Both the position numbers and the translations under genes were made by a program. DNA of 64,000 bases from Limisphaerales bacterium (lineage in GTDB: Bacteria > Verrucomicrobiota > Verrucomicrobiia > Limisphaerales > UBA9464). The stretch is taken from contig OZ260084.1 in assembly GCA_965284395.1 (NCBI GenBank), positions 595,401 to 659,400 on the forward strand, in the 5' to 3' direction. The notes beneath the pieces are model-generated. The model made no database searches. It was not told the DNA's origin and saw only the letters and a program-made list of their open reading frames with translations. The first letter of the stretch is position 1; every line of letters starts with the position of its first letter. This document shows positions 11,952 to 63,467 of this stretch, piece by piece.

Positions 11952-12791
11952 ATGAAGGATCCGACACAACTGGGCCCGGACGAACTGAAAGCCTGGCTTC
12001 GGGATCACCTTCAGATGAGAGGATCCGCTGCCACGGCCATCAACGTGCGGCACGAAGAATCACCCTTCGAGAAACCCGCCGCGCTCTGGAAGGCGGGAGA
12101 CGGAACTTTTCGCGATCGACTCCAACAGGCGGTCCTCGACTTCATCCAGGAATCCGCGCGCGGTGAATGGACTCCCGAGGCGTTTCATCAGCTGGGCTTC
12201 CTGATCGAAGCCTGCCCCCTGCCCCGCACCGAAGCCGCTCTAGAAGATCTGGTTCAGGGCCAGCGATTGCGCCACCTGCAAGCGGGCCCCCAACTCCACA
12301 TGCTGGCCCTGCGAACCCTGCTCGCACTGGGATGGAAGGGCACCCCCGCTTTCTGGAAGTCGCAGCAACCACTCATCGGAGATCGCTGGCCCTCGATCAT
12401 CTTCGAGGGCCTCGCCTACCACGATCTGAATCTCGCCTTCGCTGCGCTCCCCGACCTCGCTCGAGATCCACAATCCATGCGCGAGATCTTCAACCTATTC
12501 CCCGGGCCGATGCGAACGGCCCAGATCAGCTTTCAGGAGTTGGCATCCCAGGCGGGCCGCATCATCAACAGGGTCGAGGCCGAACCGGCAGGATTGCTCC
12601 TCGAATGGTTCTCACTGCGAGGCATCGAACTAAGCCATAACCATGCGGCAGAATTCTCACGCGGAGCCGCGGAGAGCGCGGAGAGAGGGTCAGGTCCCCA
12701 AGCTTCCAACGTCGGACACTATTCACCAAACGGTGACTGCTCCGCCTCCCATCCAAGTGTCCTTTCTCCGCGTCTCCGCGTCTCCGCGTGA
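11952..12791 (+). CDS. hypothetical all-alpha protein; the last 53 codons and the stop are supplied by a MITE-like insertion
   Basis: ORF with somewhat more A/T-ending codons than its neighbours. From 12630 onward the reading frame lies inside repeat copy A (tail ...LSHNHAAEFSRGAAESAERGSG...SPRLRVSA). No family recognised. Confidence 0.55.
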   Translation: MKDPTQLGPDELKAWLRDHLQMRGSAATAINVRHEESPFEKPAALWKAGDGTFRDRLQQAVLDFIQESARGEWTPEAFHQLGFLIEACPLPRTEAALEDLVQGQRLRHLQAGPQLHMLALRTLLALGWKGTPAFWKSQQPLIGDRWPSIIFEGLAYHDLNLAFAALPDLARDPQSMREIFNLFPGPMRTAQISFQELASQAGRIINRVEAEPAGLLLEWFSLRGIELSHNHAAEFSRGAAESAERGSGPQASNVGHYSPNGDCSASHPSVLSPRLRVSA

Positions 12792-12828
12792 ACCTGTCCC
12801 CGCCTTCAACCGCATCGATACGGCTTAT
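12630..12828 (-). mobile_element. MITE-like element, copy A (inverted relative to copies B and C, the most diverged)
   Basis: Aligns over its full length with 28662..28860 and 37043..37233. Ends GCCATAACCATGC ... GCATCGATACGGC; flanks C-TAA-G and C-TTA-T. Confidence 0.8.
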
Positions 12829-12840
12829 GAGACCCCGCCG

Positions 12841-12929
12841 GGTGAGGGCACCCAGCCTACAAGCAGTGACCCCGGGGACTGGCGGCCGGCTTGAACTCGC
12901 GTTTGTAGGCCGCGTGCCCCCACGCGGCG
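12841..12929. repeat. R1 palindromic repeat (GTAGGCCGxGTGCCC... family), diverged copy
   Basis: GGTGAGGGCACCCAGCCTACAA ... TTTGTAGGCCGCGTGCCCCCACGCGGC. Shares arms with 15044, 26088, 33798 and 50308. Confidence 0.7.
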
Positions 12930-12985
12930 CTTCTCCATCGCCTGCGCGCTTGGCCAAGACGCCCCAAATCGGGTTTCATCGAGTC

Positions 12986-14941: not shown

Positions 14942-15043
14942 TGGGCACAAGTTGCTGCAGCCCCAGCGGAGAGGGGTGGGGCGAGTGTCCTCACGAGCCG
15001 CTCATCGGCGTCGGGGTCGGAATCGGCATCGGCATCGAGGATC

Positions 15044-15069
15044 GCCGCGTGAGGGCACGCGGCCTACAA
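15044..15069. repeat. R1 repeat half-site
   Basis: GCCGCGTGAGGGCACGCGGCCTACAA, preceded by a GGCATCGGCATCG tandem. Confidence 0.6.
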
Positions 15070-17266: not shown

Positions 17267-17340
17267 TCACAGGCCGCAAGCCGAGGAAAGTGATCCACGG
17301 CTATGCTGCGGTCCCTCTCGCCGTCAAACGGGGCGGCATA

Positions 17341-17397
17341 GTTCTCGTTGCCCTACCAAGCCCTTTCCATGGGCGATGAGGACATCGCCACCCCGAT
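17341..17397. repeat. R2 repeat module (GGCAACGTCCTCGTTGCC ... GGCGACGAGGACGTCGCCACCCC family)
   Basis: GTTCTCGTTGCCCTACCAAGCCCTTTCCATGGGCGATGAGGACATCGCCACCCCG. Same two-part module as at 20921 and 31218. Confidence 0.7.
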
Positions 17398-20854: not shown

Positions 20855-20920
20855 GTGCCAGTCAGCATGCTCTGGGGCACGAACCCGGAACAAGTGACGA
20901 GTCGGTTACTGCCCGAACGG

Positions 20921-20988
20921 GCCGGCAACGTCCTCGTGGGCTTCCCCAGCTGTTTTCCCGGGGCGACGAGGACGTCGCCACCCCGAAA
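20921..20988. repeat. R2 repeat module between pstB and the phosphoesterase gene
   Basis: GGCCGGCAACGTCCTCGTGGGC...GGGGCGACGAGGACGTCGCCACCCCG. Confidence 0.7.
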
Positions 20989-25723: not shown

Positions 25724-26086
25724 TCACTTCGCCCCCACGCAGTAGAGGAACTTGTCCGACCGGATCAACGGGCGGCTTCCGTCCACGGTCGGGCTCGCGT
25801 CGAAGCTGCTGCGATCCCGCAGGGCGTTCCGGGCGACGAGTTCAAACGTGGGCTTCGCCGCCAGGACCACGGTCCCGCCCCCACGATCCACGGCGTGGAT
25901 CCTCCCGTCGGCCAGCACGGGTGACGCATAGAATTGCGAGGCCTTCGGGATGCGCTCCTCGTAGACCAGCTCCCCATCCACCAGCGGCGTGCTGGACGCG
26001 TACCCGTGATCGCGGACCTTCGGCTCGTCCGGTTGTACCGCGGCAACATCCTTCTTCCACAGCAGGCTTCCGTCCCCACGCTTCAG
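25724..26086 (-). pseudogene. 5'-truncated remnant of a PQQ-like beta-propeller gene (last ~1.5 blades only)
   Basis: My translation gives YKLKRGDGSLLWKKDVAAVQPDEPKVRDHGYASSTPLVDGELVYEERIPKASQFYASPVLADGRIHAVDRGGGTVVLAAKPTFELVARNAL...FLYCVGAK. This parallels the C-terminus of the 12986..14368 product (GQELYRERLGGSHSASPLLADGLIHIASREGDIHVIRPGRKFELVAKNNL...ALYRIAA). Homology stops at an R1 repeat, with no signal peptide or N-terminal blades. Confidence 0.7.
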
Positions 26087-26087
26087 T

Positions 26088-26152
26088 TTGTAGGCCGCGT
26101 GCCCCCACGCGGCGAGGCATGGGCAGCGCCGGGTTGGGGCACCCGGCCTACA
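26088..26152. repeat. R1 palindromic repeat
   Basis: TTGTAGGCCGCGTGCCCCCACGCGGCG...GGGTTGGGGCACCCGGCCTACAA, with inverted arms. Confidence 0.75.
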
Positions 26153-26186
26153 ATGACTTTATCCGGGCCCCGCCTCGTGACCTCGG

Positions 26187-27065
26187 CTACCTGGGCGGCG
26201 CGACGAGGCTTCTGGCTGGATTGAAACCGGAATCTCCCTCCACCACCCGCGCCACCGCGCGGGCCGCCGCCGCAAATCCGAAAGCCCCGGTCACGAACGT
26301 CGCCGACCCAAACCCTCCATCGCAGTTCAGCCGCATCGATTCCCCCGCAGCACCCGCCTCTCGTACGGCACACACACCGCCATCCGCCGACGGAAACACC
26401 GGTGTCTCGGCGGAGCAGATGCACTCGACGCCGGACTTCCGGTCATTCCGCGGAAACCCATGTTCCTTCCTAAGCCGCTTCCGCACTTCGCTCAGCAACC
26501 GGTCATGCGTAACGCGGGCCAAATCCTCCACCCGCACCGCCGTCGGATCCCGCCGTCCACCCGCGCCGCCACAGACGACCAGAGGAATTCGATTCCCGTG
26601 GCACTGGGCGATGAGGTGGACCTTGTTCCGCACGCTGTCGATCGCGTCGACGACCACGTCCGGTCGATCCGCCGTGTGCTCCGCTTCCAACCCGAGCAAC
26701 CGCCCGGCGGAATCGGCTGTGTAGAACTCCATCTTCACGTCCACCCGGGTCCCGGCGTGGATGCCCCGGATCCGCTCCGCCATCACGTCTGCCTTCGCCC
26801 GGCCGAGCGTGGAATCCATGGCCGGCAACTGGCGGTTCACGTTCGAGACACAGACCTCGTCCAGGTCCACCAAGGTCAGACGCCCGACACCCGTCCGCGC
26901 CAGCGCTTCCGCAACCCACGATCCAACCCCGCCGATCCCGATGACCATCGCATGCGATCGACGAAGTCGGGCAAGGCCCTGCCGCCCGTACAACCGCCCG
27001 ATGCCACCAAACCGGAAATCGAAGTCGTCGCTCGCCAGGGAAGAAGCAGGATCCACAGATTTCAC
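26187..27065 (-). CDS. tcdA: tRNA threonylcarbamoyladenosine dehydratase (ThiF-family, TcdA/CsdL)
   Basis: FGGIGRLYG, VIGIGGVGSWVAEALARTGVG.LTLVDLDEVCVSNVNRQ, DAIDSV..K, GGAGG and GFGSATFVTGAFG are colinear with E. coli TcdA as I recall it. GTG start 27065 lies inside an R5 repeat, so the exact start is uncertain. Confidence 0.8.
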   Translation of the reverse strand: MKSVDPASSLASDDFDFRFGGIGRLYGRQGLARLRRSHAMVIGIGGVGSWVAEALARTGVGRLTLVDLDEVCVSNVNRQLPAMDSTLGRAKADVMAERIRGIHAGTRVDVKMEFYTADSAGRLLGLEAEHTADRPDVVVDAIDSVRNKVHLIAQCHGNRIPLVVCGGAGGRRDPTAVRVEDLARVTHDRLLSEVRKRLRKEHGFPRNDRKSGVECICSAETPVFPSADGGVCAVREAGAAGESMRLNCDGGFGSATFVTGAFGFAAAARAVARVVEGDSGFNPARSLVAPPR

Positions 27066-27151
27066 GGATTACACCGATTTCATTGGCATTCGGAATGACG
27101 GAACGTCCCCCATCCCGGTCCATCCGTGCAATCGGTGCAATCCGTGGATGG
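27051..27151. repeat. R5 hairpin repeat (ATTTCACGGATT / AATCCGTG family)
   Basis: CCACAGATTTCACGGATTACACCGATTTCAT ... CATCCGTGCAATCGGTGCAATCCGTGGATGG, with arms in inverted orientation. Confidence 0.7.
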
Positions 27152-27171
27152 CCCAACCGCACCTCAGCGGC

Positions 27172-28428
27172 TTACTCCTTCACCGAGGCCATCTCCTCCT
27201 CGTGCTTCCTGCGGGCAGCATCGATGTCGTAGCGATCGTTGTCCGGATGTTCCGGGTTCAACGGCGAGATGTCCCGGAGCTTCTGGATGATGCGCGGGAG
27301 GTGTTCGAGGACGTAGTCCACTTCCTCCGACGTATTGTAGATCCCGAGGCTGAACCGCACGGAACCCCGCGCCCGCATCGGCACGACGCCCATCGCGGTC
27401 AGCACGTGCGACGGATCCAGCGAACCCGTCGTACAGGCCGAACCGGAGCTCGCACAGATGCCGACCTGATCCAGCAGCATCAACACCGCCTCCGCCTCCA
27501 CGAAATCGAACCCGATGTTCGCCGTGTTCGGCAGGCGTGGTTCCTTGGCCCCGTTGCGCACCGTGTTCGGGACGTTCGTCAGGATCCAGCCCTCCAGCCG
27601 GTCCCGCAACGCCCGCACCCGGGTGTTCTCGTCTTCCAAGGTCGCCAGCGCCAGCTCAGCCGCGCGACCGAACCCGACGATGTTCGCCACGCTCTCGGTA
27701 CCACCACGGCGACCGCGTTCCTGATGGCCGCCGATGACGTACGGCGTGTAACGCGTGCGCTTCTTGACGTAGAGCATCCCGACGCCCTTCGGCGCATGCA
27801 GCTTGTGCGCGCTCAAGGAGAGGAAATCCACGCCCAGGCGCTTCACGTCGATGGGCAGCTTGCCCGGCACCTGCACCGCGTCCGTGTGGCACAAAACGCC
27901 CTTGCTCCGGCAGATCGCCGCGACTTCCTCGATCGGGAAGATCACGCCCGTCTCGTTGTTGGCGTACATCGCCGACACGATCGCCGTGTCCGGCCGGATC
28001 GACTGCTCCAACACATGAAGGTCCAGGGAACCATCCGATTCCACCGGCAGGTACGTCACCTCGAAGCCCATCTTCTCCAGGTGCGCTCCGAAGCTGATGT
28101 TGGCCGAGTGCTCGACCTTGGTGGTGATCACGTGCCGTTTGCCGGTGGTCACCAGCGCCGAGTGGATCGCCGAGTTGTTCGACTCCGTGCCGCAGCTCGT
28201 GAACACGATCTCCTTCGGATCCGCGTTCACCAAGGCCGCCACCTTTTCCCGGGCCTTTTCGACGTGCCCGTGCACCTGGGCGCCAAACCCGTAGGCGCTG
28301 GACGGGTTGCCCCAGAACTCCCGCAGGAACGGGATCATCGCGTCGACGACCTCCGGCGCGACGCGCGTGGTGGCGTTGTTATCGAAATAGTAAACCTTCT
28401 GCTGCTCCATAAATCGTGGATCCGTCAA
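27172..28428 (-). CDS. cysteine desulfurase, NifS/IscS class
   Basis: YYFDNNATTRVAPEVVDAM, NPSSAYGFG, FTSCGTESNN, SAHKLHAPKGVG (PLP Lys) and SSGSACTTG (active-site Cys loop). An alternative start is MEQQK at 28410. Confidence 0.9.
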   Translation of the reverse strand: MTDPRFMEQQKVYYFDNNATTRVAPEVVDAMIPFLREFWGNPSSAYGFGAQVHGHVEKAREKVAALVNADPKEIVFTSCGTESNNSAIHSALVTTGKRHVITTKVEHSANISFGAHLEKMGFEVTYLPVESDGSLDLHVLEQSIRPDTAIVSAMYANNETGVIFPIEEVAAICRSKGVLCHTDAVQVPGKLPIDVKRLGVDFLSLSAHKLHAPKGVGMLYVKKRTRYTPYVIGGHQERGRRGGTESVANIVGFGRAAELALATLEDENTRVRALRDRLEGWILTNVPNTVRNGAKEPRLPNTANIGFDFVEAEAVLMLLDQVGICASSGSACTTGSLDPSHVLTAMGVVPMRARGSVRFSLGIYNTSEEVDYVLEHLPRIIQKLRDISPLNPEHPDNDRYDIDAARRKHEEEMASVKE

Positions 28429-28534
28429 AGCAGACGAAATCGCTCCGCTACGCTAACGGCCATCCCCAGCATCGCAAGGTGGGATTTTTTGGCGCACGCC
28501 CCCGGGGCGCACCCTTCCCCTCGTCCTCGCCGCC

Positions 28535-28660
28535 CGTACTCGTACTCGTACTCAGCCCGAAGGGCGGTACTCGTACTCGTACTCGAAACGAATCCTCGCG
28601 TCATCACTCCACCCGGCTCCCAGCGCATCGAGTACGAGTAGGAGTTCGAGTTCGAGTACG
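28535..28660. repeat. GTACTC hexamer tandem blocks with an inverted partner block
   Basis: CGTACTCGTACTCGTACTC, GGTACTCGTACTCGTACTCG, then CGAGTACGAGTAGGAGTTCGAGTTCGAGTACG. Abuts MITE copy B. Confidence 0.7.
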
Positions 28661-28661
28661 A

Positions 28662-28860
28662 CTAAGCCGTATCCATGCGATTGAAGGCGGGGACAGGTTC
28701 ACGCGGAGACGCGGAGACGCGGAGAAGGGACACTTGGACGGGAGGCGGAGCAGTCACCGTTTGGTGAATAGTGTCCGACGTTGAAAGGTTGGAGACCTGA
28801 CCCTCTCTCCGCGCTCTCCGCGGCTCCGCGTGAGAATTCTGCTGCATGGATACGGCTAAG
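28662..28860 (+). mobile_element. MITE-like element, copy B (best preserved)
   Basis: 13-bp TIRs GCCGTATCCATGC ... GCATGGATACGGC, flanked on both sides by C-TAA-G. The interior is an imperfect fold-back rich in GCGGAGA units. No credible ORF. Confidence 0.85.
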
Positions 28861-28965
28861 CCCCGGCCCCAATCCAAAAGGCCCTCTGCGCCTCCGTGCC
28901 TCTGCGGGAGATCACCCAGAAATTCCCTCTCCCCTCTCCGGCCCCACCGCGTGATACTCCCTCCC

Positions 28966-30228
28966 ATGTCCCCGGTTCTTCGACTTCTTGGAAGCTGGCT
29001 TGCCAGCGGTTGCCTGGCACTCGCGGCGAATCTCCCGGAACCCGCGTCGTTCCCGGCCCAGCCGGAATTGCCCGACCCGCTCCGCATGCTCTCGGGCGCC
29101 CCGGTGAAGTCCGCGCGCGAATGGCGCAACAAGCGTCGCCCCGAACTCAAGCAACTCTTCCAGGACTACATGTACGGCACGCTGCCCGCGAAGCCCGACC
29201 ACCTGGAGTTCAAGACCGTGATGGTCCATCCCGACTTCCTCGACGGACTCGGGACGCTCCGCATCGTGACGGTCGAGTGCGGACGCAAGGACCCGACGCG
29301 CATCAGCCTGATGGTGGTCACTCCGAACAAGATCAAGGGACGCGTGCCGACCTTCCTCGCGATGAACTTCTGCGGGAACCACACCGTCACCGACGACCCG
29401 CGCATCCCACTGACCGAAGGCTGGCTCTACAAGAACTGCGCCGGCTGCGTCGACAACCACGCCACCGCGGCCTCGCGCGGTTCCCAGAAGCAGGACTGGC
29501 CCATCGCCGAGATCCTCAACCGCGGCTACGCCTTCGCCACGTTCTGTTCCACCGACATCGATTCCGACCGCGGCGATGTCTCCGACGGCGTCCGCGCCCG
29601 TGAGGATCGGGCGGCCGGGCGTCCCGTCGAGGCTGCGAACCGCGGCACGATCGCGGCGTGGGCCTGGGGCTTCCATCGCTGCATGGATTATCTCGTCACG
29701 GACAAGCGGATCGACGGCAAGCGCATCGCCGCCGTGGGTCATTCGCGCAACGGCAAGACTGCACTGCTGGCCGCGGCCTTCGACGAACGCATCGCGCTGG
29801 CGATCCCGCACCAGGCCGGCTGCGGCGGAACCGCGCCGAGCCGCGGCAAGATCGGGGAGTCGGTGCAGCGCATCAACACGTCGTTCCCGCACTGGTTCAA
29901 CGCGCGCTTCAAGCAGTTCAACACCCAACCCGAGCGCCTGCCCTTCGACCAGCACTGCCTCCTCGCGCTCGTCGCGCCGCGCCCCGTCCTGTTCTCGAAC
30001 GCGCAGGAAGACCAGTGGGCCAATCCTTCCGGGCAATTCGACATCCTCAAGGCCGCCGAACCCGTTTACCGGCTCCTGAACGCCGGTGGACTCGACGCCA
30101 CCTCCATGCCCGCCAACAGCGTCCTCATCCGCAGCCAACTCGGCTACTACATCCGTCCCGGCAAACACTCCATGCACGCCGAGGACTGGGCCGTGTTCCT
30201 CGACTTCGCCGACGCGCATCTCAAGTAG
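28966..30228 (+). CDS. glucuronoyl esterase-like protein (carbohydrate esterase family 15), secreted
   Basis: Track ORF 28846..30228 trimmed to ATG 28966 (signal MSPVLRLLGSWLASGCLALAA). GHSRNGKTALLAAAFDERI (nucleophile-Ser motif, bacterial variant of GCSRxG), AAWAWGFHRCMDYL and ALVAPRP. Confidence 0.7.
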   Translation: MSPVLRLLGSWLASGCLALAANLPEPASFPAQPELPDPLRMLSGAPVKSAREWRNKRRPELKQLFQDYMYGTLPAKPDHLEFKTVMVHPDFLDGLGTLRIVTVECGRKDPTRISLMVVTPNKIKGRVPTFLAMNFCGNHTVTDDPRIPLTEGWLYKNCAGCVDNHATAASRGSQKQDWPIAEILNRGYAFATFCSTDIDSDRGDVSDGVRAREDRAAGRPVEAANRGTIAAWAWGFHRCMDYLVTDKRIDGKRIAAVGHSRNGKTALLAAAFDERIALAIPHQAGCGGTAPSRGKIGESVQRINTSFPHWFNARFKQFNTQPERLPFDQHCLLALVAPRPVLFSNAQEDQWANPSGQFDILKAAEPVYRLLNAGGLDATSMPANSVLIRSQLGYYIRPGKHSMHAEDWAVFLDFADAHLK

Positions 30229-30232
30229 CGGC

Positions 30233-30289
30233 GGGCAACGAGGACGTTGCCGCTCCGCTTGACCCGGGGGCAGTATCAAGATGCGCCCC
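30233..30289 (+). repeat. 57-bp repeat, upstream copy of an inverted pair flanking gene 30355..31143
   Basis: GGGCAACGAGGACGTTGCCGCTCCGCTTGACCCGGGGGCAGTATCAAGATGCGCCCC. 51 of 57 positions match the reverse complement of 31183..31239 by my alignment. Confidence 0.8.
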
Positions 30290-31182: not shown

Positions 31183-31285
31183 GGGGCGCATCTTGACACC
31201 GCCCCCGCCTCATGCGGGGCGGCAACGTCCTCGTTGCCCTCCCAGGCCATTTCCCAAGGCGACGAGGACGTCGCCACCCCGTTCC
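31183..31285 (-). repeat. 57-bp repeat (downstream inverted copy) followed by an R2 module
   Basis: GGGGCGCATCTTGACACCGCCCCCGCCTCATGCGGGGCGGCAACGTCCTCGTTGCCC, then ...GGCGACGAGGACGTCGCCACCCCG. Confidence 0.8.
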
Positions 31286-32674: not shown

Positions 32675-33802
32675 ATGCCACGTCGCATCCTCATCGCACC
32701 CGACAAGTTCAAGGGCACCCTGACCGCCCAGGCCGCCGCGGAAGCCATCGCCCACGCCTGGCATATGATCCATCCCGCCGACGAGCTCCGGATCGTGCCC
32801 ATGAGCGACGGAGGCGACGGATTCGGCAGCGTCCTCGCCGGCACGCTCGCAGCCGAACGTCATTCGACCGAGACCACCGACTCCGCCGGCCGACCACGGT
32901 CCGCGGAATGGTGGTTCTCCCCGTCGCGGTCGGTGGCCGTCGTCGAGACCGCCCAGGTCATCGGACTGGCACTGCTTCCACACCGTCAATTCCACCCGTT
33001 CGCCCTCGACACCTTGGGCATCGGAGCCGTCCTGCGCGACGCCGTGGCATCAGGCGCCCGGGACGCGTGGGTCGGCATCGGAGGCAGTTCCACCAACGAC
33101 GCGGGCTTTGGACTCGCCCGCGCACTCGGCTGGCAGTTCCTCGACGGAGAGGGCTCGGCCATCCTGCGCTGGCCGGAACTCCATCGACTGACCCAGGTTC
33201 GTCCGCCCGAACGATCCCTGTCCGACCTCTGCCGGTTCACCGTGGCGGTCGACGTCGACAATCCGCTCCTTGGTCCATCGGGTTGTTCGAGGATCTACGG
33301 CCCTCAGAAGGGACTCCAACCGGAGGACTTCCCAGTCGCTGAGGCCGCCCTCGGCCAACTCGCCCGTGTGATGGCCGATCATCTGGGCCGAGACATTGCC
33401 GCGATTCCCGGGAGTGGAGCCGCCGGCGGACTCGGCTTTGCCCTGCAGGCCTTCCTCGACGCCCGCGTGGAGTCCGGATTCGAGATCTTCGCCCGCGGCT
33501 GCGACCTCGATCGACATGTAGCATGGGCCGACTTCGTGATCACCGGCGAGGGCTCCCTCGATCGGCAATCCCTGATGGGCAAGGGAACCGGCCGCGTGGC
33601 GGCGCGCGCCCGCCAGCATGGCCGCCCCTGCATCGGCCTCGCAGGAATGGTTGAACCCCTGGCCTCGGGCGAACACTCCCTCTTCACTTCCGCCTTCGCC
33701 ATCGTCCCTGAGATTGCCCCCCTCGAGGCTGCCAAGGCCGACGCTACCCGCCATCTTGCCGAACTCGCCCGCCGCTGCGCCATCGCGAATCCTCGGTTGT
33801 AG
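32675..33802 (+). CDS. glycerate kinase
   Basis: MPRRILIAPDKFKGTLTAQAAAEAI, PMSDGGDGFG, ITGEGSLDRQSLMGK and VIGLAG-type motifs of the glycerate kinase family. Confidence 0.85.
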   Translation: MPRRILIAPDKFKGTLTAQAAAEAIAHAWHMIHPADELRIVPMSDGGDGFGSVLAGTLAAERHSTETTDSAGRPRSAEWWFSPSRSVAVVETAQVIGLALLPHRQFHPFALDTLGIGAVLRDAVASGARDAWVGIGGSSTNDAGFGLARALGWQFLDGEGSAILRWPELHRLTQVRPPERSLSDLCRFTVAVDVDNPLLGPSGCSRIYGPQKGLQPEDFPVAEAALGQLARVMADHLGRDIAAIPGSGAAGGLGFALQAFLDARVESGFEIFARGCDLDRHVAWADFVITGEGSLDRQSLMGKGTGRVAARARQHGRPCIGLAGMVEPLASGEHSLFTSAFAIVPEIAPLEAAKADATRHLAELARRCAIANPRL

Positions 33803-33870
33803 GCCGGGTGCCCTCACCCGGCGTGGATCGTGAACCGCTGCGTGAGGGCACGCGGCCTACAGAACGGAGC
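33798..33870. repeat. R1 palindromic repeat, full hairpin copy
   Basis: TGTAGGCCGGGTGCCCTCACCCGGCGTGGATCGTGAACCGCTGCGTGAGGGCACGCGGCCTACAGAACGGAG. 19-bp arms with one mismatch. Near-identical to 50308..50380. Confidence 0.85.
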
Positions 33871-34037: not shown

Positions 34038-35699
34038 ATGGAATCCGAGCCGACAGGATCCGCGGTGTGGCCCCCGTGGGGGCACGCCCTCGCATCCTTT
34101 GCGCTCGGCATCTCCCTGACCGGTGTCCTGGCTCTCATGGCCAGTCGCGACGCCGCTGCGCGGGAACGTGAACGCTTCGAGCGCCTGGCGGAGGGCCACG
34201 CGGGCTGGATCGATGGGCAGGTCGAACTTCATCGGACAGCCCTGCTCCGGATCGCCGACCATCTCGCCTTCCACCCCACGGCCAATGCCAACGATTGGGA
34301 CGCCGTCATCGCCCGGCTCGACCTTCGCGACACCCTCCCCGCTTTCCGGGAGATCGGATACGCCCAGCTCCACCGCGGAATCTGGCAACCTCAGGAGACA
34401 CCGTCTCTTCCCGTCCCCGACCCGGTGCCATGCCCGTCGACGAATTCACCCAACTGCCGCGAATGGGCGGTCGTGTTCGCATCGCGCGCCCACCCAGGTT
34501 CCCGCGTTGCCATTGGAGATGAGCTGGCCCCGGACACCCGGATGCGTGCCTGGTTGGAGTCCGCCCTACGGGGCGTCCCGGTCATCACCGGGCCGCACGT
34601 CCTTTCCGACGGCACGCGTGGCCTGACGCTTATCCAGCCCCTCGTCACCGGGCAGCATGCGGATGGCCGACCGGCCGTCCAGGGCGTGGTGTTTGGATCC
34701 TTCGACTTCGACGCCTTCCTCGCCCACTCGCTCGATTGGGCAGCCCGCGAGGTCGCCGTCGAGGTGTTCGACTCACCGGACCTCCAACCCGATACCCGGT
34801 GGAACAACTCCACCCCGGCTTCCCTCGCCGGGCCACCCGGCTGGAAACCGAGGCTGCAGGCCAGCTTCAGGCGCCACCGATTCGACGGCACCGCATACGT
34901 CCGCGTCACCACCACACCACTCTTCGACCGGGCGTCGCTCCGGCTCCGCTCGCTCTTCATCGCAGGCACCGGGTTCCTGCTCTCCTCCGCCATCAGCGGG
35001 ATTGTCTTCGTCCAGACCCTGGGCCGACGCCGCGCCGAGGCGCTCTCCACCGAACTCGCCGAATCCCGCGAGCTGCTGCGCCACGAATCCGCCCGCCGCG
35101 AACGCCTCGGACGAGACATCCACGACGAGACACTGCAGGACCTCTACGTGACCGGCCTCCATCTGGGCCGCCTCCGCCAGCAGTTGAAGGACCGACCTTC
35201 CGTTGTAGCCGACCTCGACCAATCCCGGTCCGCGCTCGAGTCCGTCATGCGCCGGCTCCGTGCCTTCCTGGTCGCCATCGACCCCAGCCCCGCAGATCCC
35301 GAAGATCTCGTCACCTCGGTTACCCGACTCGTCGAGCAGGCCCAGCGCGGCACCACCGCCCGGATCACCCTCGAATCCTCGATCCTTGCTGAAGTTTCAC
35401 TCCGTCCGGAGATGAACCTTGAAATCCTGCACTTCGTCCGCGAAGCCACCTGCAATGCCCTCCGACACGCTTCCCCTTCGTCGGTCGATGTCTCCTTCGC
35501 CCGAAGCCCCGACTCGATAACGGCTACGGTCACCGACAATGGTCGCGGGTTTGATCCGGAGACTGCGCCGCAGTCAGGGGGATTTGGTCTCGCTCAACTC
35601 CAGCGTCGCGCCACCGCGATACACGGGCGACTGGAGATCCGTTCGGCACCCGGCGGACCCACCCGGCTTACCCTTTCCATTCCCACCCCCAAACCATGA
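34038..35699 (+). CDS. sensor histidine kinase (periplasmic CHASE-like sensor, HisKA_3 + HATPase_c; NarL-partner type)
   Basis: Two TM segments flank a ~270-aa extracytoplasmic domain. RERLGRDIHDETLQDLYVTGLHL (H-box); NALRHA and DNGRGF / GGFGL ATP-lid motifs. ATGA overlap with the response regulator. Confidence 0.85.
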   Translation: MESEPTGSAVWPPWGHALASFALGISLTGVLALMASRDAAARERERFERLAEGHAGWIDGQVELHRTALLRIADHLAFHPTANANDWDAVIARLDLRDTLPAFREIGYAQLHRGIWQPQETPSLPVPDPVPCPSTNSPNCREWAVVFASRAHPGSRVAIGDELAPDTRMRAWLESALRGVPVITGPHVLSDGTRGLTLIQPLVTGQHADGRPAVQGVVFGSFDFDAFLAHSLDWAAREVAVEVFDSPDLQPDTRWNNSTPASLAGPPGWKPRLQASFRRHRFDGTAYVRVTTTPLFDRASLRLRSLFIAGTGFLLSSAISGIVFVQTLGRRRAEALSTELAESRELLRHESARRERLGRDIHDETLQDLYVTGLHLGRLRQQLKDRPSVVADLDQSRSALESVMRRLRAFLVAIDPSPADPEDLVTSVTRLVEQAQRGTTARITLESSILAEVSLRPEMNLEILHFVREATCNALRHASPSSVDVSFARSPDSITATVTDNGRGFDPETAPQSGGFGLAQLQRRATAIHGRLEIRSAPGGPTRLTLSIPTPKP

Positions 35700-36349
35700 A
35701 CACGCGACCCAACCTCATCCGCGTCCTCATCGTCGACGATCACCCCATCGTCCGAGTCGGACTGAAAACCGTCCTCGAACAGGAGTCGGACCTCCTCATC
35801 ACCGGTGCCGTCGCCAACGGAGTCGAGGCCCGACAGTCCTGCGAATCAGTTCCTCCGAACGTCCTCCTCCTCGACATCCGACTGGGCAACGAGAACGGAA
35901 TCACCCTTTGCCGCGACCTCCGCCAGCGCTGGCCCGAACTCAAGGTGATCTTCCTGACCTCGTACGCCGACGCCGGGACGGTCGTCGCCGCCCTGGGCGC
36001 CGGAGCCAACGGATACCTGTTGAAGGCCGTCGACGGTACCGACATCCCCGGCGCCATCCGCCGCGTCGCGGCTGGCGGATCGGTCTTCGACCCGGTCGTG
36101 ACGCCGCATGTACCCCCATCTTCCGCCCGACCAGCAGCCCCGCAACCCGTTGGTCTCGATCGCCTCTCTCCCACTGAGATTCAACTCCTGCGCTTGGTCG
36201 CCCGGGGCATGACCAACAAGGAGATCGGCTGCGAACTCGATCTGGCCGAGAAGACCATCCGCAATCACATGGTCACGCTGTTCGACAAGCTCGGCGTCCG
36301 CACCCGGACCGAAGCGGCCTTGCTCTTCGCCCAGTCTCCGGTCGCGTGA
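35696..36349 (+). CDS. response regulator, NarL/FixJ (LuxR-type HTH) family
   Basis: IRVLIVDDHPIVRVGLKTVLE, LLDIRL (phospho-Asp), and C-terminal LSPTEIQLLRLVARGMTNKEIGCELDLAEKTIRNHMVTLFDKLGV. Confidence 0.9.
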   Translation: MNTRPNLIRVLIVDDHPIVRVGLKTVLEQESDLLITGAVANGVEARQSCESVPPNVLLLDIRLGNENGITLCRDLRQRWPELKVIFLTSYADAGTVVAALGAGANGYLLKAVDGTDIPGAIRRVAAGGSVFDPVVTPHVPPSSARPAAPQPVGLDRLSPTEIQLLRLVARGMTNKEIGCELDLAEKTIRNHMVTLFDKLGVRTRTEAALLFAQSPVA

Positions 36350-36743: not shown

Positions 36744-37046
36744 ATGAGGACTGAATCCTTCGGAGAGGTCCTTCGCATCAGCGGTTTGGCCGAACTCTCG
36801 GCGCCCTCATCCCCGGCCATCCAGTACACGATCTCCTCCGCCCTCCGGGCCGAGCATCGGGACGTCGAGATCGATTCCCGCGAGCTCAAGTTCGTCGACT
36901 GCGCCGGACTCCGCACCCTGGTTGCGCTGCACCTGAGCCTCCAGTCCCGCCATGGTGGAATCCGGTTGCTGAAGCCCTCCGACGCCTTCCGGCGCCTGCT
37001 CGAGGCCACCCAGCTCCACCATCAGTTCCAGATCGTGAACAACTGA
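36744..37046 (+). CDS. STAS-domain protein (anti-sigma-factor antagonist-like)
   Basis: 100 aa. DSRELKFVDCAGLRTLVALHLSLQSRHGGIRLLKPSDAFRRLLEATQL is typical of SpoIIAA/RsbV-like STAS proteins. AGGAGG lies 5 nt before the ATG. The stop TGA sits in the flank of MITE copy C. Confidence 0.75.
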   Translation: MRTESFGEVLRISGLAELSAPSSPAIQYTISSALRAEHRDVEIDSRELKFVDCAGLRTLVALHLSLQSRHGGIRLLKPSDAFRRLLEATQLHHQFQIVNN

Positions 37047-37233
37047 GGCGTATCCATGCGATTGAAGGCGGGGACAGGTTCACGCGGAGACGCGGAGAAG
37101 GGACACTTGGACGGGAGGCGGAGCAGTCACCGTTTGGTGAATAATGTCCGACGTTGAAAGGTTGGTGACCTGACCCTCTCTCCGCGCTCTCCGCGGCTCC
37201 GCGTGAGAATTCTGCTGCATTGATACGGCTGAG
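37043..37233 (+). mobile_element. MITE-like element, copy C
   Basis: TIRs GGCGTATCCATGC ... GCATTGATACGGC, flanked on both sides by C-TGA-G. One GCGGAGAC unit fewer than copy B. Confidence 0.85.
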
Positions 37234-50186: not shown

Positions 50187-50527
50187 GGAGTTTCAAGGAC
50201 GGGAGTTTCAAGTTTCAAGCCAGCCCAGCCTCCTCATCCCGGCCACGTAGCCAGGTCACGAGGCGGGGCCACAGGGAGTTCCCAATTGCCAGATCCCCGG
50301 TCCACGCGTGTAGGCCGGGTGCCCTCACCCGGCGTCGATCGGTAATCGCCGCGTGGGGGCACGCGGCCTACAGAACGGAGTTGAACCCGGCCGTAGTACC
50401 TCTGTCGTTGGGCCGGAGCCCGTCCCGAGCCTCCTCACGTCGTCTCCTACCCTGTAACCGTAGCCGACGAGGTCACGAGGCGGATGGCTTCCCGGCTTCA
50501 AACTTGAAACTGAAAACTTCGAACTCC
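50187..50527. repeat. intergenic mosaic of five repeat modules in the order R3, R4, R1, R4, R3
   Basis: R3 50187..50221; R4 50245..50300; R1 50308..50380; R4 50458..50483; R3 (inverted) 50494..50527. Confidence 0.8.
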
Positions 50528-51547: not shown

Positions 51548-51676
51548 GCACACCCTGGCGGAGCCCGCACCTCTCTGCCTCGCTGCTCCTGTGGGAAACC
51601 GTCCCCCTCCGCGTCCTCCGCGTGAACACGGTCCTCCCCCCGCGCCTCCCACCGAAACCGTCTTCCTCCCGCCCCC

Positions 51677-57887: not shown

Positions 57888-58160
57888 TCTGGTTAAGGTC
57901 GGATCGCACCATCCCGCGCGTGGTGTGAATGGCACGCCGTCACAGGTCACCTCCCGGGATCCTGTCACCCCTCCGGGACCTGACGCGCACAGAAAAAGCC
58001 CAGCGCTCACGCGCTGGGCTATCTTCTACCAGTGTTCTTCACCGGTCGCGGCTCAGAATTCGCTTCCAGCTGGATCACGCAAAACGAAGGCAAACCAGTA
58101 ACAGCGCTACCTTCTCCGCGCCTCCGCGCCTCTGCGCTAGAACCATCCCTTCGCCCGAGA

Positions 58161-60794
58161 TCACCCAATGGGCAATCCCGGCTCGCCAACAGCCTCGTCC
58201 TCCTGACCTTCGGAGATGACCGGTGCGATTGCCTGCAACCGATCCTTCGGAGCGAGGTCGATGAGCTTCACGCCCATCGTATTCCGGCCGGCTTCACGGA
58301 TGCCCTTCACCGGGATGCGGACCATCTGGCCGCCGACGGTGATCAACATCAGTTCATCGCCATCCAGGACGGTGAGGGCACCCACGACAGCACCGGTCTT
58401 CTCGCCGGTCTTCATCGTGATGATGCCCTTCCCGCCGCGGGATTGGATCCGGTATTCCTCGAACTCCGTGCGCTTGCCGATGCCGTTCTCGCCGGCAACG
58501 AGCAACGTGGCGTTCGGGTCGACGATGGCGAGGGCGACGACGGCGTCGGCCTTCTCCAGCTCGATTCCCTTCACGCCCGTGGCCGAGCGGCCCATGGAGC
58601 GGACGCCCTCCTCGTGGAAGCGGATGCTCATGCCCTCGCGGGTGATGATGACGACCTCGTTGTTGCCCGAGGTCAGCTTCACGTCCACGAGCGCATCGGT
58701 CGCCTCGATGTTGATGGCGATGATGCCGCCCTTGCGGACGTTCTGGAAATCCGAGAGGGCGGTACGCTTGACCGTTCCCTGGCGGGTGACGAAGAAGAGT
58801 TCGAAGGCCTGCTGCCAAGTCTGCTCTTCCTTGTTGGCGCCGTATTTGGCGCCGACGCGGACGAGAGCCTGGATCTTCTCGTCGGCGCGGAGCTCCAGCA
58901 GGTTGGCGATCGATCGGCCCTTGGCGGCACGCCCCATGTCCGGGATCTCGTGGACCCGTTCCACGTACACGCGGCCCAGGTTCGTGAAGAACATGAGGTA
59001 ATCGTGCGTGGACGCGGTGAAGAGACGTTCGATGAAGTCCGCGTCCTCAGGCGTCGCGGCCTCGCGGGTGGACATGCCGATGACGCCCTTGCCACCGCGC
59101 TTCTGGGAGCGGTAGGAGGCGACGTTCGTGCGCTTGATCAACCCGTTGTGCGTCAGCGTCACGATGACGCCTTCGTTCGCGATCAGGTCCTCGATGGCGA
59201 TGTCGCCTTCGTCCGGAACGATCTGGGTGAGGCGCGGCGTGGCGTGCTTGTCGCGGATCTGCTTGAGCTCGGCCTTGATGATCGAGAGCACGCGGGCTTC
59301 GCGGGCGAGGATGTCCATCAGGTCCTTGATCCGCTCCAGCAACTCCCTGTACTCGGCCTCGACCTTGTCGATTTCAAGGCCGGTCAGTTGGTACAGGCGG
59401 AGTTCGAGGATGGCGTCGACCTGGCGTTCGGTGAGGGAGTAGCGACCGTCGACCAACCGGCCTTCCGAGCGGAGGAAGATGCCCCAACGTTCGACCTGGG
59501 TCTTGGTCCATTCGAAGGCCAGCAACTTCACGCGGGCTTCGTCCCGGTTCTTGGAATTCCGGATGATGCGGATGAACTCGTCGAGGTTGCGCAGGGCGCA
59601 GATGTAACCTTCGAGGATCTCAGCCCGTTCTTCGGCCTTCTTCAGCTGGAAGCGCGTACGCCGGAGGATCACCTCGCGCCGATGCTCGACGTAGCAGTTG
59701 ATCAGGTCCTTGAGATTGAGCGTCTTTGGGCGACCCCGATCGATGGCCAACGCATTGACCGAGAAGCTCGTCTCCAGCTGGGTGTGCTTGTAGAGGTTGT
59801 TGATCACCACCTTCGGGATGGCGTCCCGCTTCAACTCGACCACCACCCGGGTGTTCTCGTCGGACTCATCGCGGATCGCCGTGATCTCGGTGAAGCCCGG
59901 CGTCCGTTCGTTGACGAGGTCCGCGATCTTCTCGACCAAGGTCGCACGGTTCACGTTGTAGGGGATCTCCGTGATGACCAACTGCTCACGGTTGCCCTTC
60001 AACTGCTCGACCCCGACCTTGCCGCGGATCTTCACCGAGCCGCGACCGGTGGTGAAGTACTGCTTGATGCCCTCCATCCCGCAGACCATGCAACCCGTCG
60101 GAAAATCCGGGCCCTTCATGAACCGCATCAACTGCGGGATCGTGATGTTCGGGTTGTCGATCTGGGCGCACACGGCATCGATGGTCTCGCCGAGATTGTG
60201 CGGGGCCATGTTGGTGGCCATGCCGACGGCGATACCGGTGCCGCCGTTGACAAGCAGGTTCGGGAACGCAGCCGGGAACACGACCGGCTCGTGCATCGAC
60301 TCGTCGTAGTTTGGTGCGAAATCGACGGTCTCCTGATCCATGTCCTGCATCAGGACCGCGCCGAGGTGGGTCAAGCGGGCCTCGGTATAACGCATGGCCG
60401 CGGGGGGATCGCCCTCGACGGAGCCGAAGTTGCCCTGCCCATCCACCAACCGCTCGCGCATCGCCCAGGGCTGCGCCATGTGCACCAGCGTCGAGTAAAC
60501 CGCCTGATCGCCGTGGGGATGGTACTTGCCGATCGTCTCACCCACGATACGCGCGCACTTCAGGTGCTTGCGGTTCGGCATCACGCCGAGTTCGTGCATC
60601 GCGTACAACGTGCGGCGCTGGGACGGCTTGAGTCCGTCGCGGACATCCGGCAAGGCCCGCGAGATGATCACGGACATCGAGTAGTCGAGGAACGAGTTCT
60701 TGATCTCGTCGGCGACATTGATCTTGCCGATCTTCTCGTTGGCGGCGTAGGCCGGGGTTCCGGCGCCGCCCTGTGGTATGATTTCGTCGGCCAT
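58161..60794 (-). CDS. gyrA: DNA gyrase subunit A
   Basis: DGLKPSQRRTLYAM, GKYHPHGDQAVY, the active-site region AAMRYTEARL, and C-terminal beta-pinwheel repeats. Confidence 0.97.
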   Translation of the reverse strand: MADEIIPQGGAGTPAYAANEKIGKINVADEIKNSFLDYSMSVIISRALPDVRDGLKPSQRRTLYAMHELGVMPNRKHLKCARIVGETIGKYHPHGDQAVYSTLVHMAQPWAMRERLVDGQGNFGSVEGDPPAAMRYTEARLTHLGAVLMQDMDQETVDFAPNYDESMHEPVVFPAAFPNLLVNGGTGIAVGMATNMAPHNLGETIDAVCAQIDNPNITIPQLMRFMKGPDFPTGCMVCGMEGIKQYFTTGRGSVKIRGKVGVEQLKGNREQLVITEIPYNVNRATLVEKIADLVNERTPGFTEITAIRDESDENTRVVVELKRDAIPKVVINNLYKHTQLETSFSVNALAIDRGRPKTLNLKDLINCYVEHRREVILRRTRFQLKKAEERAEILEGYICALRNLDEFIRIIRNSKNRDEARVKLLAFEWTKTQVERWGIFLRSEGRLVDGRYSLTERQVDAILELRLYQLTGLEIDKVEAEYRELLERIKDLMDILAREARVLSIIKAELKQIRDKHATPRLTQIVPDEGDIAIEDLIANEGVIVTLTHNGLIKRTNVASYRSQKRGGKGVIGMSTREAATPEDADFIERLFTASTHDYLMFFTNLGRVYVERVHEIPDMGRAAKGRSIANLLELRADEKIQALVRVGAKYGANKEEQTWQQAFELFFVTRQGTVKRTALSDFQNVRKGGIIAINIEATDALVDVKLTSGNNEVVIITREGMSIRFHEEGVRSMGRSATGVKGIELEKADAVVALAIVDPNATLLVAGENGIGKRTEFEEYRIQSRGGKGIITMKTGEKTGAVVGALTVLDGDELMLITVGGQMVRIPVKGIREAGRNTMGVKLIDLAPKDRLQAIAPVISEGQEDEAVGEPGLPIG

Positions 60795-60848
60795 GGATTC
60801 GGAGGAAAGTGACTGATCTGAAGGTGGAACGGATCGGACTGCGCTGGC

Positions 60849-63467
<2,619 letters not shown>

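Follow-up and report, generated by a model that had tools for sequence, protein, structure and literature searches.

The repeat of about 190 bp found three times in the window (the whole stretch of 64,000 nucleotides analysed here) is probably a non-autonomous, hairpin-shaped MITE of a verrucomicrobial (Limisphaerales-like) lineage. That the three repeats are true copies of a MITE inserting at C-TNA-G, with TNA duplicated, is supported by the flanks of 11 insertion loci, three in the window and eight in related genomes, in which the middle base of the triplets at both ends of the element coincides in 9/11 cases.

Three copies in the window and their surroundings

The three copies align from end to end, as the earlier note had seen by eye, copy A (on the opposite strand) and copy C being 94.4% and 93.4% identical to copy B, respectively (196-198 nt; BLAST E-values of 1e-83 to 1e-101). 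Their flanks are unrelated to each other. The element proper is taken here from terminal repeat to terminal repeat, which gives 191, 191 and 183 bp for copies A, B and C, the earlier note having counted in the flanking C-TNA...TNA-G as well. The features of the three copies are the following:

12634-12824 (-): copy A, core, 191 bp; most diverged termini of the three
12825-12827 (-): copy A, left triplet, read TAA along the element and TTA on the + strand
12631-12633 (-): copy A, right triplet, read TTA along the element and TAA on the + strand; middle base mismatched to the left triplet
28666-28856 (+): copy B, core, 191 bp, both terminal inverted repeats included
28663-28665 (+): copy B, left target-site duplication TAA; the host base before it is C (28662)
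28857-28859 (+): copy B, right target-site duplication TAA; the host base after it is G (28860)
28666-28678 (+): copy B, left terminal inverted repeat GCCGTATCCATGC
28844-28856 (+): copy B, right terminal inverted repeat GCATGGATACGGC, complementary to the left one at every position
28698-28725 (+): copy B, inner left arm TTCAC(GCGGAGAC)n, a hairpin-arm motif widespread outside the MITE family
28804-28836 (+): copy B, inner right arm TCTCTCCGCGCTCTCCGCGGCTCCGCGTGAGAA, pairing with the left arm
28750-28769 (+): copy B, central mini-hairpin GCAGTCACC-GTTT-GGTGAAT, family-specific and kept in most subfamilies recovered
37047-37229 (+): copy C, core, 183 bp, one GCGGAGAC unit shorter
37044-37046 (+): copy C, left duplication TGA, also serving as stop codon of the STAS gene
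37230-37232 (+): copy C, right duplication TGA; the host base after it is G (37233)

Copy C differs in length from copies A and B by exactly one 8-bp GCGGAGAC octamer. The 13-bp terminal inverted repeats match at 13/13 positions in copy B, with 1-2 mismatches per arm in copy A (GCCGTATCGATGC / GCATGGTTATGGC) and in copy C (GGCGTATCCATGC / GCATTGATACGGC), and they are kept in 11/11 loci, the outermost bases being G...C. The flanks read C-TAA-G on both sides of copy B and C-TGA-G on both sides of copy C; at copy A, the + strand has C-TAA-G on the low-coordinate side and C-TTA-T on the high-coordinate side. The octamer difference, the terminal repeats and this flank pattern had all been described in the earlier note, and each was reproduced. 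A sensitive BLAST search and a profile search recovered no fourth copy or fragment within the 64-kb window. The statement that the interior holds no credible ORF also held, since the frames open across the element match no Pfam family; elsewhere only spurious 'hypothetical' ORFs were found for it.

Genes of the window were mapped from codon-position GC together with Pfam matches:

27172-28428 (-): class-V aminotransferase, on one side of copy B, divergent from the esterase
28846-30228 (+): glucuronyl esterase ORF, on the other side of copy B
36744-37046 (+): STAS-domain gene, upstream of copy C, which is followed by fabD (+)
58161-63380 (-): gyrB-gyrA, at the end of the window

Copy A lies upstream of a PQQ-propeller gene and antisense to the neighbouring genes, with its left end (the high coordinate) at 10 nt from a GTAG-headed REP-like repeat. 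That copy B sits at the end of a 626-aa gene, whose TAG is followed 24 nt later by an in-frame TAA, was considered and rejected: the ORF in question, 26761-28641 (+), has no homologues and is, according to codon-position GC, a shadow of the real aminotransferase gene on the opposite strand. The closest relatives of the FabD protein are 88-90% identical, and the few named matches (78-79%) carry the label Verrucomicrobiota or Limisphaerales. Two genes, for a CHASE histidine kinase and a LuxR-type response regulator (34038-36349), are placed between the glycerate kinase and STAS genes; this pair is missing from the corresponding position in three loci of relatives (L126-L128), which indicates a local gene insertion or loss with respect to them. 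The sequence of the window has a GC content of 65%, in which long spurious ORFs are common, and its GC skew is negative over nearly the whole length (-0.04 to -0.27), approaching zero towards the gyrB-gyrA end.

Other repeat families could be seen in the window. One consists of GTAG-headed palindromes (TGTAGGCCGGGTGCCCTCACCCGGCG ...), often arranged as inverted doublets of ~75 bp, which look like REP/REPIN of the RAYT-mobilised kind. Another is a small hairpin repeat built on GGCAACGAGGACGTTGCC, which occurs between genes at several places in the window and also in the relative L128. AT-richer short repeats, GAGTTTCAAGGACGGGAGTTTCAAGTTTCAAGC (two identical 33-mers) and CTTCAAACTTGAATCTGAA, lie upstream of several sugar-modification genes and may be a common regulatory or promoter-region sequence. 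The positions of these repeats are:

12833-12871, 12903-12940, 15034-15069, 26080-26160, 33790-33870 and 50299-50393: GTAG-headed repeats, window
17329-17395, 20918-20985, 30230-30289 and 31183-31281: GGCAACGAGGACGTTGCC repeats, window; ~14300-14400 in L128
48622-48706, 50188-50220, 50476-50528 and 51660-51712: AT-richer repeats, window

Flanking triplets in eleven insertion loci

In the window the middle base of the flanking triplets matches in two of three copies (p ~0.16), and, three copies being insufficient, more were sought in relatives, as the earlier note had proposed. Eight further independent insertion loci were obtained from related Verrucomicrobiota assemblies, namely a Verrucomicrobia MAG and metagenome contigs. 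A scan of a genome collection with the central 20-mer found one Verrucomicrobia MAG only, which carries a subfamily ~80% identical to the window copies (L001, L002, two copies in L004, and L005). The syntenic fabD loci of relatives provided one more diverged copy, situated behind a Kup gene (L129-L131). In addition, a 64-codon frame open across the element on the reverse strand was translated and used as protein query; it recovered spurious 'hypothetical proteins' that are other copies of the element, and three such ORFs could be traced to contigs, yielding four copies (two in L133, and one each in L134 and L135). Two of these hypothetical ORFs (P0121 and P0130) are both on one NCBI contig. 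Searches for exact matches to window proteins and to P0121 returned no record. The sample of 11 loci is small, and several come from fragmented MAGs. The triplets, in element orientation, are:

Copy A: left TAA, right TTA
Copy B: left TAA, right TAA
Copy C: left TGA, right TGA
L001: left TGA, right TGA
L002: left TAA, right TCA
L135: left TAA, right TAA
L004b: left TAA, right TAA
L129: left TGA, right TGA
L134: left CTG, right TTG
L133a: left TGA, right TGT
L133b: left TGG, right TGA

Both triplets are identical in 6/11 loci and share two of their three bases in the remaining five. The middle base is the same on both flanks in 9/11 (permutation p = 6e-4; binomial p = 1.3e-4 at a match rate of 25%, or 2.5e-3 with the pooled composition), the two mismatches being copy A and L002. 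The host base ahead of the left triplet is C in 9/11 loci, and the one after the right triplet is G in 11/11. Alignments of 8 and of 11 copies showed sharp edges, the conservation being confined between the flanking triplets, with unrelated sequence beyond. L134 has the non-canonical triplets CTG and TTG, in which the deviant third base is common to both sides; the duplication of an atypical target would produce this. Together the loci support cut-and-paste insertion with duplication of TNA, in line with the transposition into CTNAG proposed in the earlier note, and the case that the note had named as contrary, an element forming part of a larger conserved and non-mobile sequence, was not seen.

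The copy L004a (TAA/TCA) is represented in the list above by L135 (TAA/TAA), with which it shares the left flank and an element 99% identical. The two sequences (L004, 3124-3420; L135, 3130-3424) coincide as far as the element's right end, after which they are wholly different. This comparison indicates that L004a is rearranged or chimeric (mis-assembled). The right triplet varies among near-identical copies and is therefore not carried along with the element.

The left triplet can be assigned to the host from loci of relatives in which the element is missing. The STAS-fabD spacer of three such loci and the 3' end of the Kup gene in L128 are devoid of it. The STAS orthologues of these three loci end in AAC-TGA-G, as in the window, so that the left triplet is host sequence; the Kup gene ends in ATC-TAG-G in L128, with no element, and in ATC-TGA-G followed by the element in L129. 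The spacers 3' of STAS and Kup in relatives do not align with the window or with L129, and no clean empty site with an alignable downstream flank was obtained. The STAS-fabD spacer of the relatives holds a different hairpin unit, CCTCAGCCTCCTGACGTCG...CGACGTCAGGAGGCGA, in three tandem copies in L128 (9697-10000) and in one copy each in L126 and L127 (9878-10000), which indicates that this spacer has been colonised independently by different repeats.

Two further readings of the triplets were discarded. The left triplet was TRA in the first 8/8 loci, suggesting an asymmetric target as in IS200/IS605. Left triplets TCA, TTA and TGA are found, however, in the read-through ORFs of other copies (with E, K or Q after ...MDTA), and the presence of TCA and TTA on the left implies that both orientations relative to the target occur. 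Right triplets TTA and TCA were also considered as stops of convergent genes, and the ORFs ending there are not credible. Finally, the terminal G and C of the element regenerate CTNAG on both sides, so a duplication of 5 bp (CTNAG), with termini CCG...CGG, is possible as well.

Two alternatives to a duplicated target bear on these flanks. A passive repeat, spread by recombination or segmental duplication, would have terminal inverted repeats of 18 bp that take in CTNAG; this pentamer is close to a palindrome, and the flanks of copy A (CTAAG/CTTAG, the first base aside) do fit such an inverted reading. This explanation is very improbable and largely refuted, as the middle base is repeated directly and not as its complement in the nine matching loci, the CTGAG to the left of copy C belongs to host coding sequence and is found also in relatives free of the element, and the flanks are unrelated beyond the triplets. 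The alternative of a REP/REPIN or TIR-repeat-type element moved as single-stranded DNA by a Y1 HUH transposase (RAYT/TIRYT) is improbable, to a lesser degree. The enzymes of this type are relatives of IS200/IS605 that recognise hairpins and insert them beside a short target with no duplication. In its favour, the unit in its entirety forms a very stable hairpin, both as DNA and as RNA, its orientation is well defined (219 bits with an nhmmer profile on one strand, against 53 bits on the opposite one), and the GTAG-headed family in the window means that a RAYT-type system may exist in the genome (PMC3733652). GTAG-tagged REP/REPIN moved by RAYTs resemble the element in being intergenic, hairpin-forming and abundant, and their termini are reported to supply stop codons to neighbouring ORFs (PMC3733652). 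Unlike them, the element has no GTAG or CGTC tag, is 5-10 times longer, and has terminal inverted repeats and a flanking triplet that covaries; Y1 transposition leaves no duplication, whereas the middle base is shared in most loci here and the right triplet is not borne by the element. None of the window ORFs matches an HUH transposase family. A REP or REPIN is defined by a GTAG (or CGTC) tag at one end of a palindrome of 20-40 bp with no target duplication; the present element, at ~190 bp, is untagged and its flanking triplet covaries. In the same way, PATEs of the IS200/IS605 type have neither terminal inverted repeats nor a duplication, and their conserved target is only 5' of the left end; terminal inverted repeats are found here, together with a right triplet that varies and matches the left one.

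Inner hairpin and position at gene ends

A profile of the 11 copies showed that the family-specific part is restricted to the outer ~30 nt of each side, consisting of the terminal repeat and GATTGAAGGCGGGGACAGG at the left end and of TTCTGCT and the terminal repeat at the right end. TTCAC(GCGGAGAC)n and its complement, which form the inner arms, constitute a generic motif that is also found free-standing in many other bacteria. A metagenome scan with the arm motif TCACGCGGAGMCGCGGAGA gave at least 120 contigs (L006-L125), and among the matches listed none has the full element; in a profile search these loci match element positions ~35-180 only. The motif was located also on plasmids of Sphingomonadaceae (Sphingomonas) and of Gemmatirosa. 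The generic inverted arm pairs, for which the variants CGCAGAGG and CGCGAAGG were seen too, either have nothing between them or flank nested variant hairpins or a PDDEXK_3 (GxxExxY) gene. In two loci the arms enclose an ORF of ~139 aa of this nuclease superfamily, the C-terminus of which (...SASPRLRV) is encoded by the hairpin arm itself. Examples are listed together with the solitary arm remnants of the window:

390-459 in L015; 3148-3222 in L060; 10314-10588 in L044; 1440-1588 in L050; 1437-1667 in L145: inverted arm pairs
7083-7533 in L022; 756-1203 in L122: arms enclosing the PDDEXK_3 (GxxExxY) ORF
28883-28906, 51607-51627 and 58113-58136 in the window: solitary arm remnants

The literature search found no paper containing the TTCAC(GCGGAGAC)n arm sequence or describing this hairpin class.

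The folding back of the two halves onto each other, which the earlier note had read from the letters, is strong for both nucleic acids. The whole element has a minimum free energy of -116.4 kcal/mol as RNA (z = -8.6) and of -62.1 kcal/mol as DNA (z = -8.1), and in each case 0/200 shuffled sequences folded as well.

The stop codon of a real gene serves as target in 5/11 loci (the genes being STAS, a secretin-like protein, an epimerase, a pfkB remnant and Kup), and in all five the element is co-oriented with the gene (p = 0.06). The window offers ~4 sites in stop context against 10 intergenic CTNAG sites, from which ~29% of insertions at stops would be expected; a specific targeting of stop codons was therefore rejected, the five cases being no excess over site availability (p = 0.18). 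TAA and TGA stops in a C_G context offer the element a ready-made target and are restored by the duplication, so that insertions exactly at gene ends are tolerated and common. At these positions the element would be transcribed as a 3'-UTR hairpin of ~70 pairs, any effect of which on mRNA decay or termination is speculative. Compensatory changes affect only 3/55 pairs, with an unfavourable covariation term of +3.96. The + strand RNA folds better than the - strand in 9/11 copies, a weak bias that is inconsistent across subfamilies. Nothing was retrieved from Rfam at gathering thresholds, the best hits under relaxed ones being plant miRNA-precursor hairpins at 25-27 bits where 137-168 are required, and scans of copies B and C for promoter and terminator consensus sequences returned nothing. 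The lack of a stop-codon excess, the negligible covariation, the weak strand bias and the lack of promoters or terminators make an RNA-level role at gene ends speculative.

These data bear on two proposals in which the hairpin matters more than the vehicle. The selected unit could be the inner TTCAC(GCGGAGAC)n hairpin, acting as an RNase III substrate or other 3'-end RNA structure or as a protein-binding site, with the shell as a mere vehicle and the family persisting since the hairpin is useful at gene ends. The wide occurrence of the arms in metagenomes and plasmids, their matching of the inner positions only, the five co-oriented copies at stop codons and the better folding of the + strand are all in line with this proposal. 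We regard it as unlikely, because stop usage does not exceed availability, the co-orientation reaches no more than the p value given above, both orientations relative to the target occur, covariation is nearly nil, Rfam and the consensus scans gave no match, and copies A and B are away from gene ends. A broader version, a two-layer construct, is slightly less likely still: a DDE-type shell would carry the cross-phylum hairpin as passenger and place it precisely, by way of C-TRA-G stops and in sense orientation, at the 3' ends of genes, with a role there at the RNA level in processing, stabilisation or termination. If true, the family would be a domesticated or mutualistic vehicle and not a purely selfish repeat, and it would provide a handle on the role of a widespread hairpin class.

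Candidate transposase and relation to known elements

A non-autonomous MITE would depend on a DDE-type cut-and-paste transposase acting in trans, which would bind the terminal repeats and cut C-TNA-G with a 3-nt stagger on either side of TNA; repair of the gaps would then copy TNA. The enzyme would most likely be of the IS5 (IS1031/IS427-like) / PIF-Harbinger type and be encoded elsewhere in the genome, an assignment whose sole basis is the type of target and of duplication. As the earlier note had stated, the window carries no transposase: the ~56 ORFs, those in the gaps between confident genes included, match no Pfam transposase family. An autonomous IS with the same 13-bp ends, which the note had proposed to look for, was not found: no longer unit bounded by these terminal repeats was present in the window or in 130 loci (~770 kb). 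Viral contigs had no match to the left-end pattern, and plasmids matched the arm motif only.

MITEs are in general shorter than ~300-500 bp, noncoding, bounded by terminal inverted repeats, flanked by a duplication of fixed length and dispersed in several copies, which may be present in one relative and absent from another. The size and lack of coding capacity, terminal repeats, duplication and dispersed copies described above are those of such an element, and most triplets are TNA within C-TNA-G, the 3-bp target of the IS5/PIF-Harbinger type. A C-TNA-G target cut around a duplicated TNA has been documented for NuwaII, which is PIF-Harbinger-related and presents the same ambiguity between 3 and 5 bp (PMC4482050), and the recognition of three nucleotides at the target is reported to be common in the IS1031 group of IS5 (PMC2516522). 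The element is like the IS5-derived MITEs (IS1031/IS427-like) and the eukaryotic PIF-Harbinger/NuwaII elements and their Tourist-like MITEs in being short, noncoding, flanked by terminal repeats and present in many copies, and also in the 3-nt TNA duplication and the C-TNA-G target. Unlike those MITEs, its interior is a long, near-perfect hairpin built on an octamer-repeat module and not a deletion derivative of transposase flanks.

The Correia elements of Neisseria and the ERIC/IRU of enterobacteria are likewise 100-200 bp long, fold from end to end, are intergenic and are often co-transcribed with their neighbours. Their hairpin RNA is a possible RNase substrate, and by analogy the present hairpin may be one too. 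They differ from it in duplicating TA, in having other and longer terminal repeats and in occurring in Proteobacteria, and they share no sequence similarity with it.

The MITE is ordinary in kind, and the family does not appear to have been described before; no paper on MITEs in Verrucomicrobiota was found in the literature search. It represents a bacterial case of the C-TNA-G target reported for one eukaryotic PIF-Harbinger-related group. It also illustrates that a stop codon can be a harmless landing site, since the duplication rebuilds the stop.

The family also leaves its mark on sequence databases. It generates spurious 'hypothetical protein' calls, with 23 matches among representatives of 50%-identity clusters, and it breaks short-read assemblies, whose contigs end in or beside copies: L005 begins inside a copy, several contigs (the starts of L129-L132) begin just upstream of fabD, and one MAG contig is apparently chimeric across a copy. 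The family may help to mark strains and to trace its transposase, and the point of greatest interest beyond the MITE itself is the nature of the GCGGAGAC-repeat arms, which occur in several phyla.
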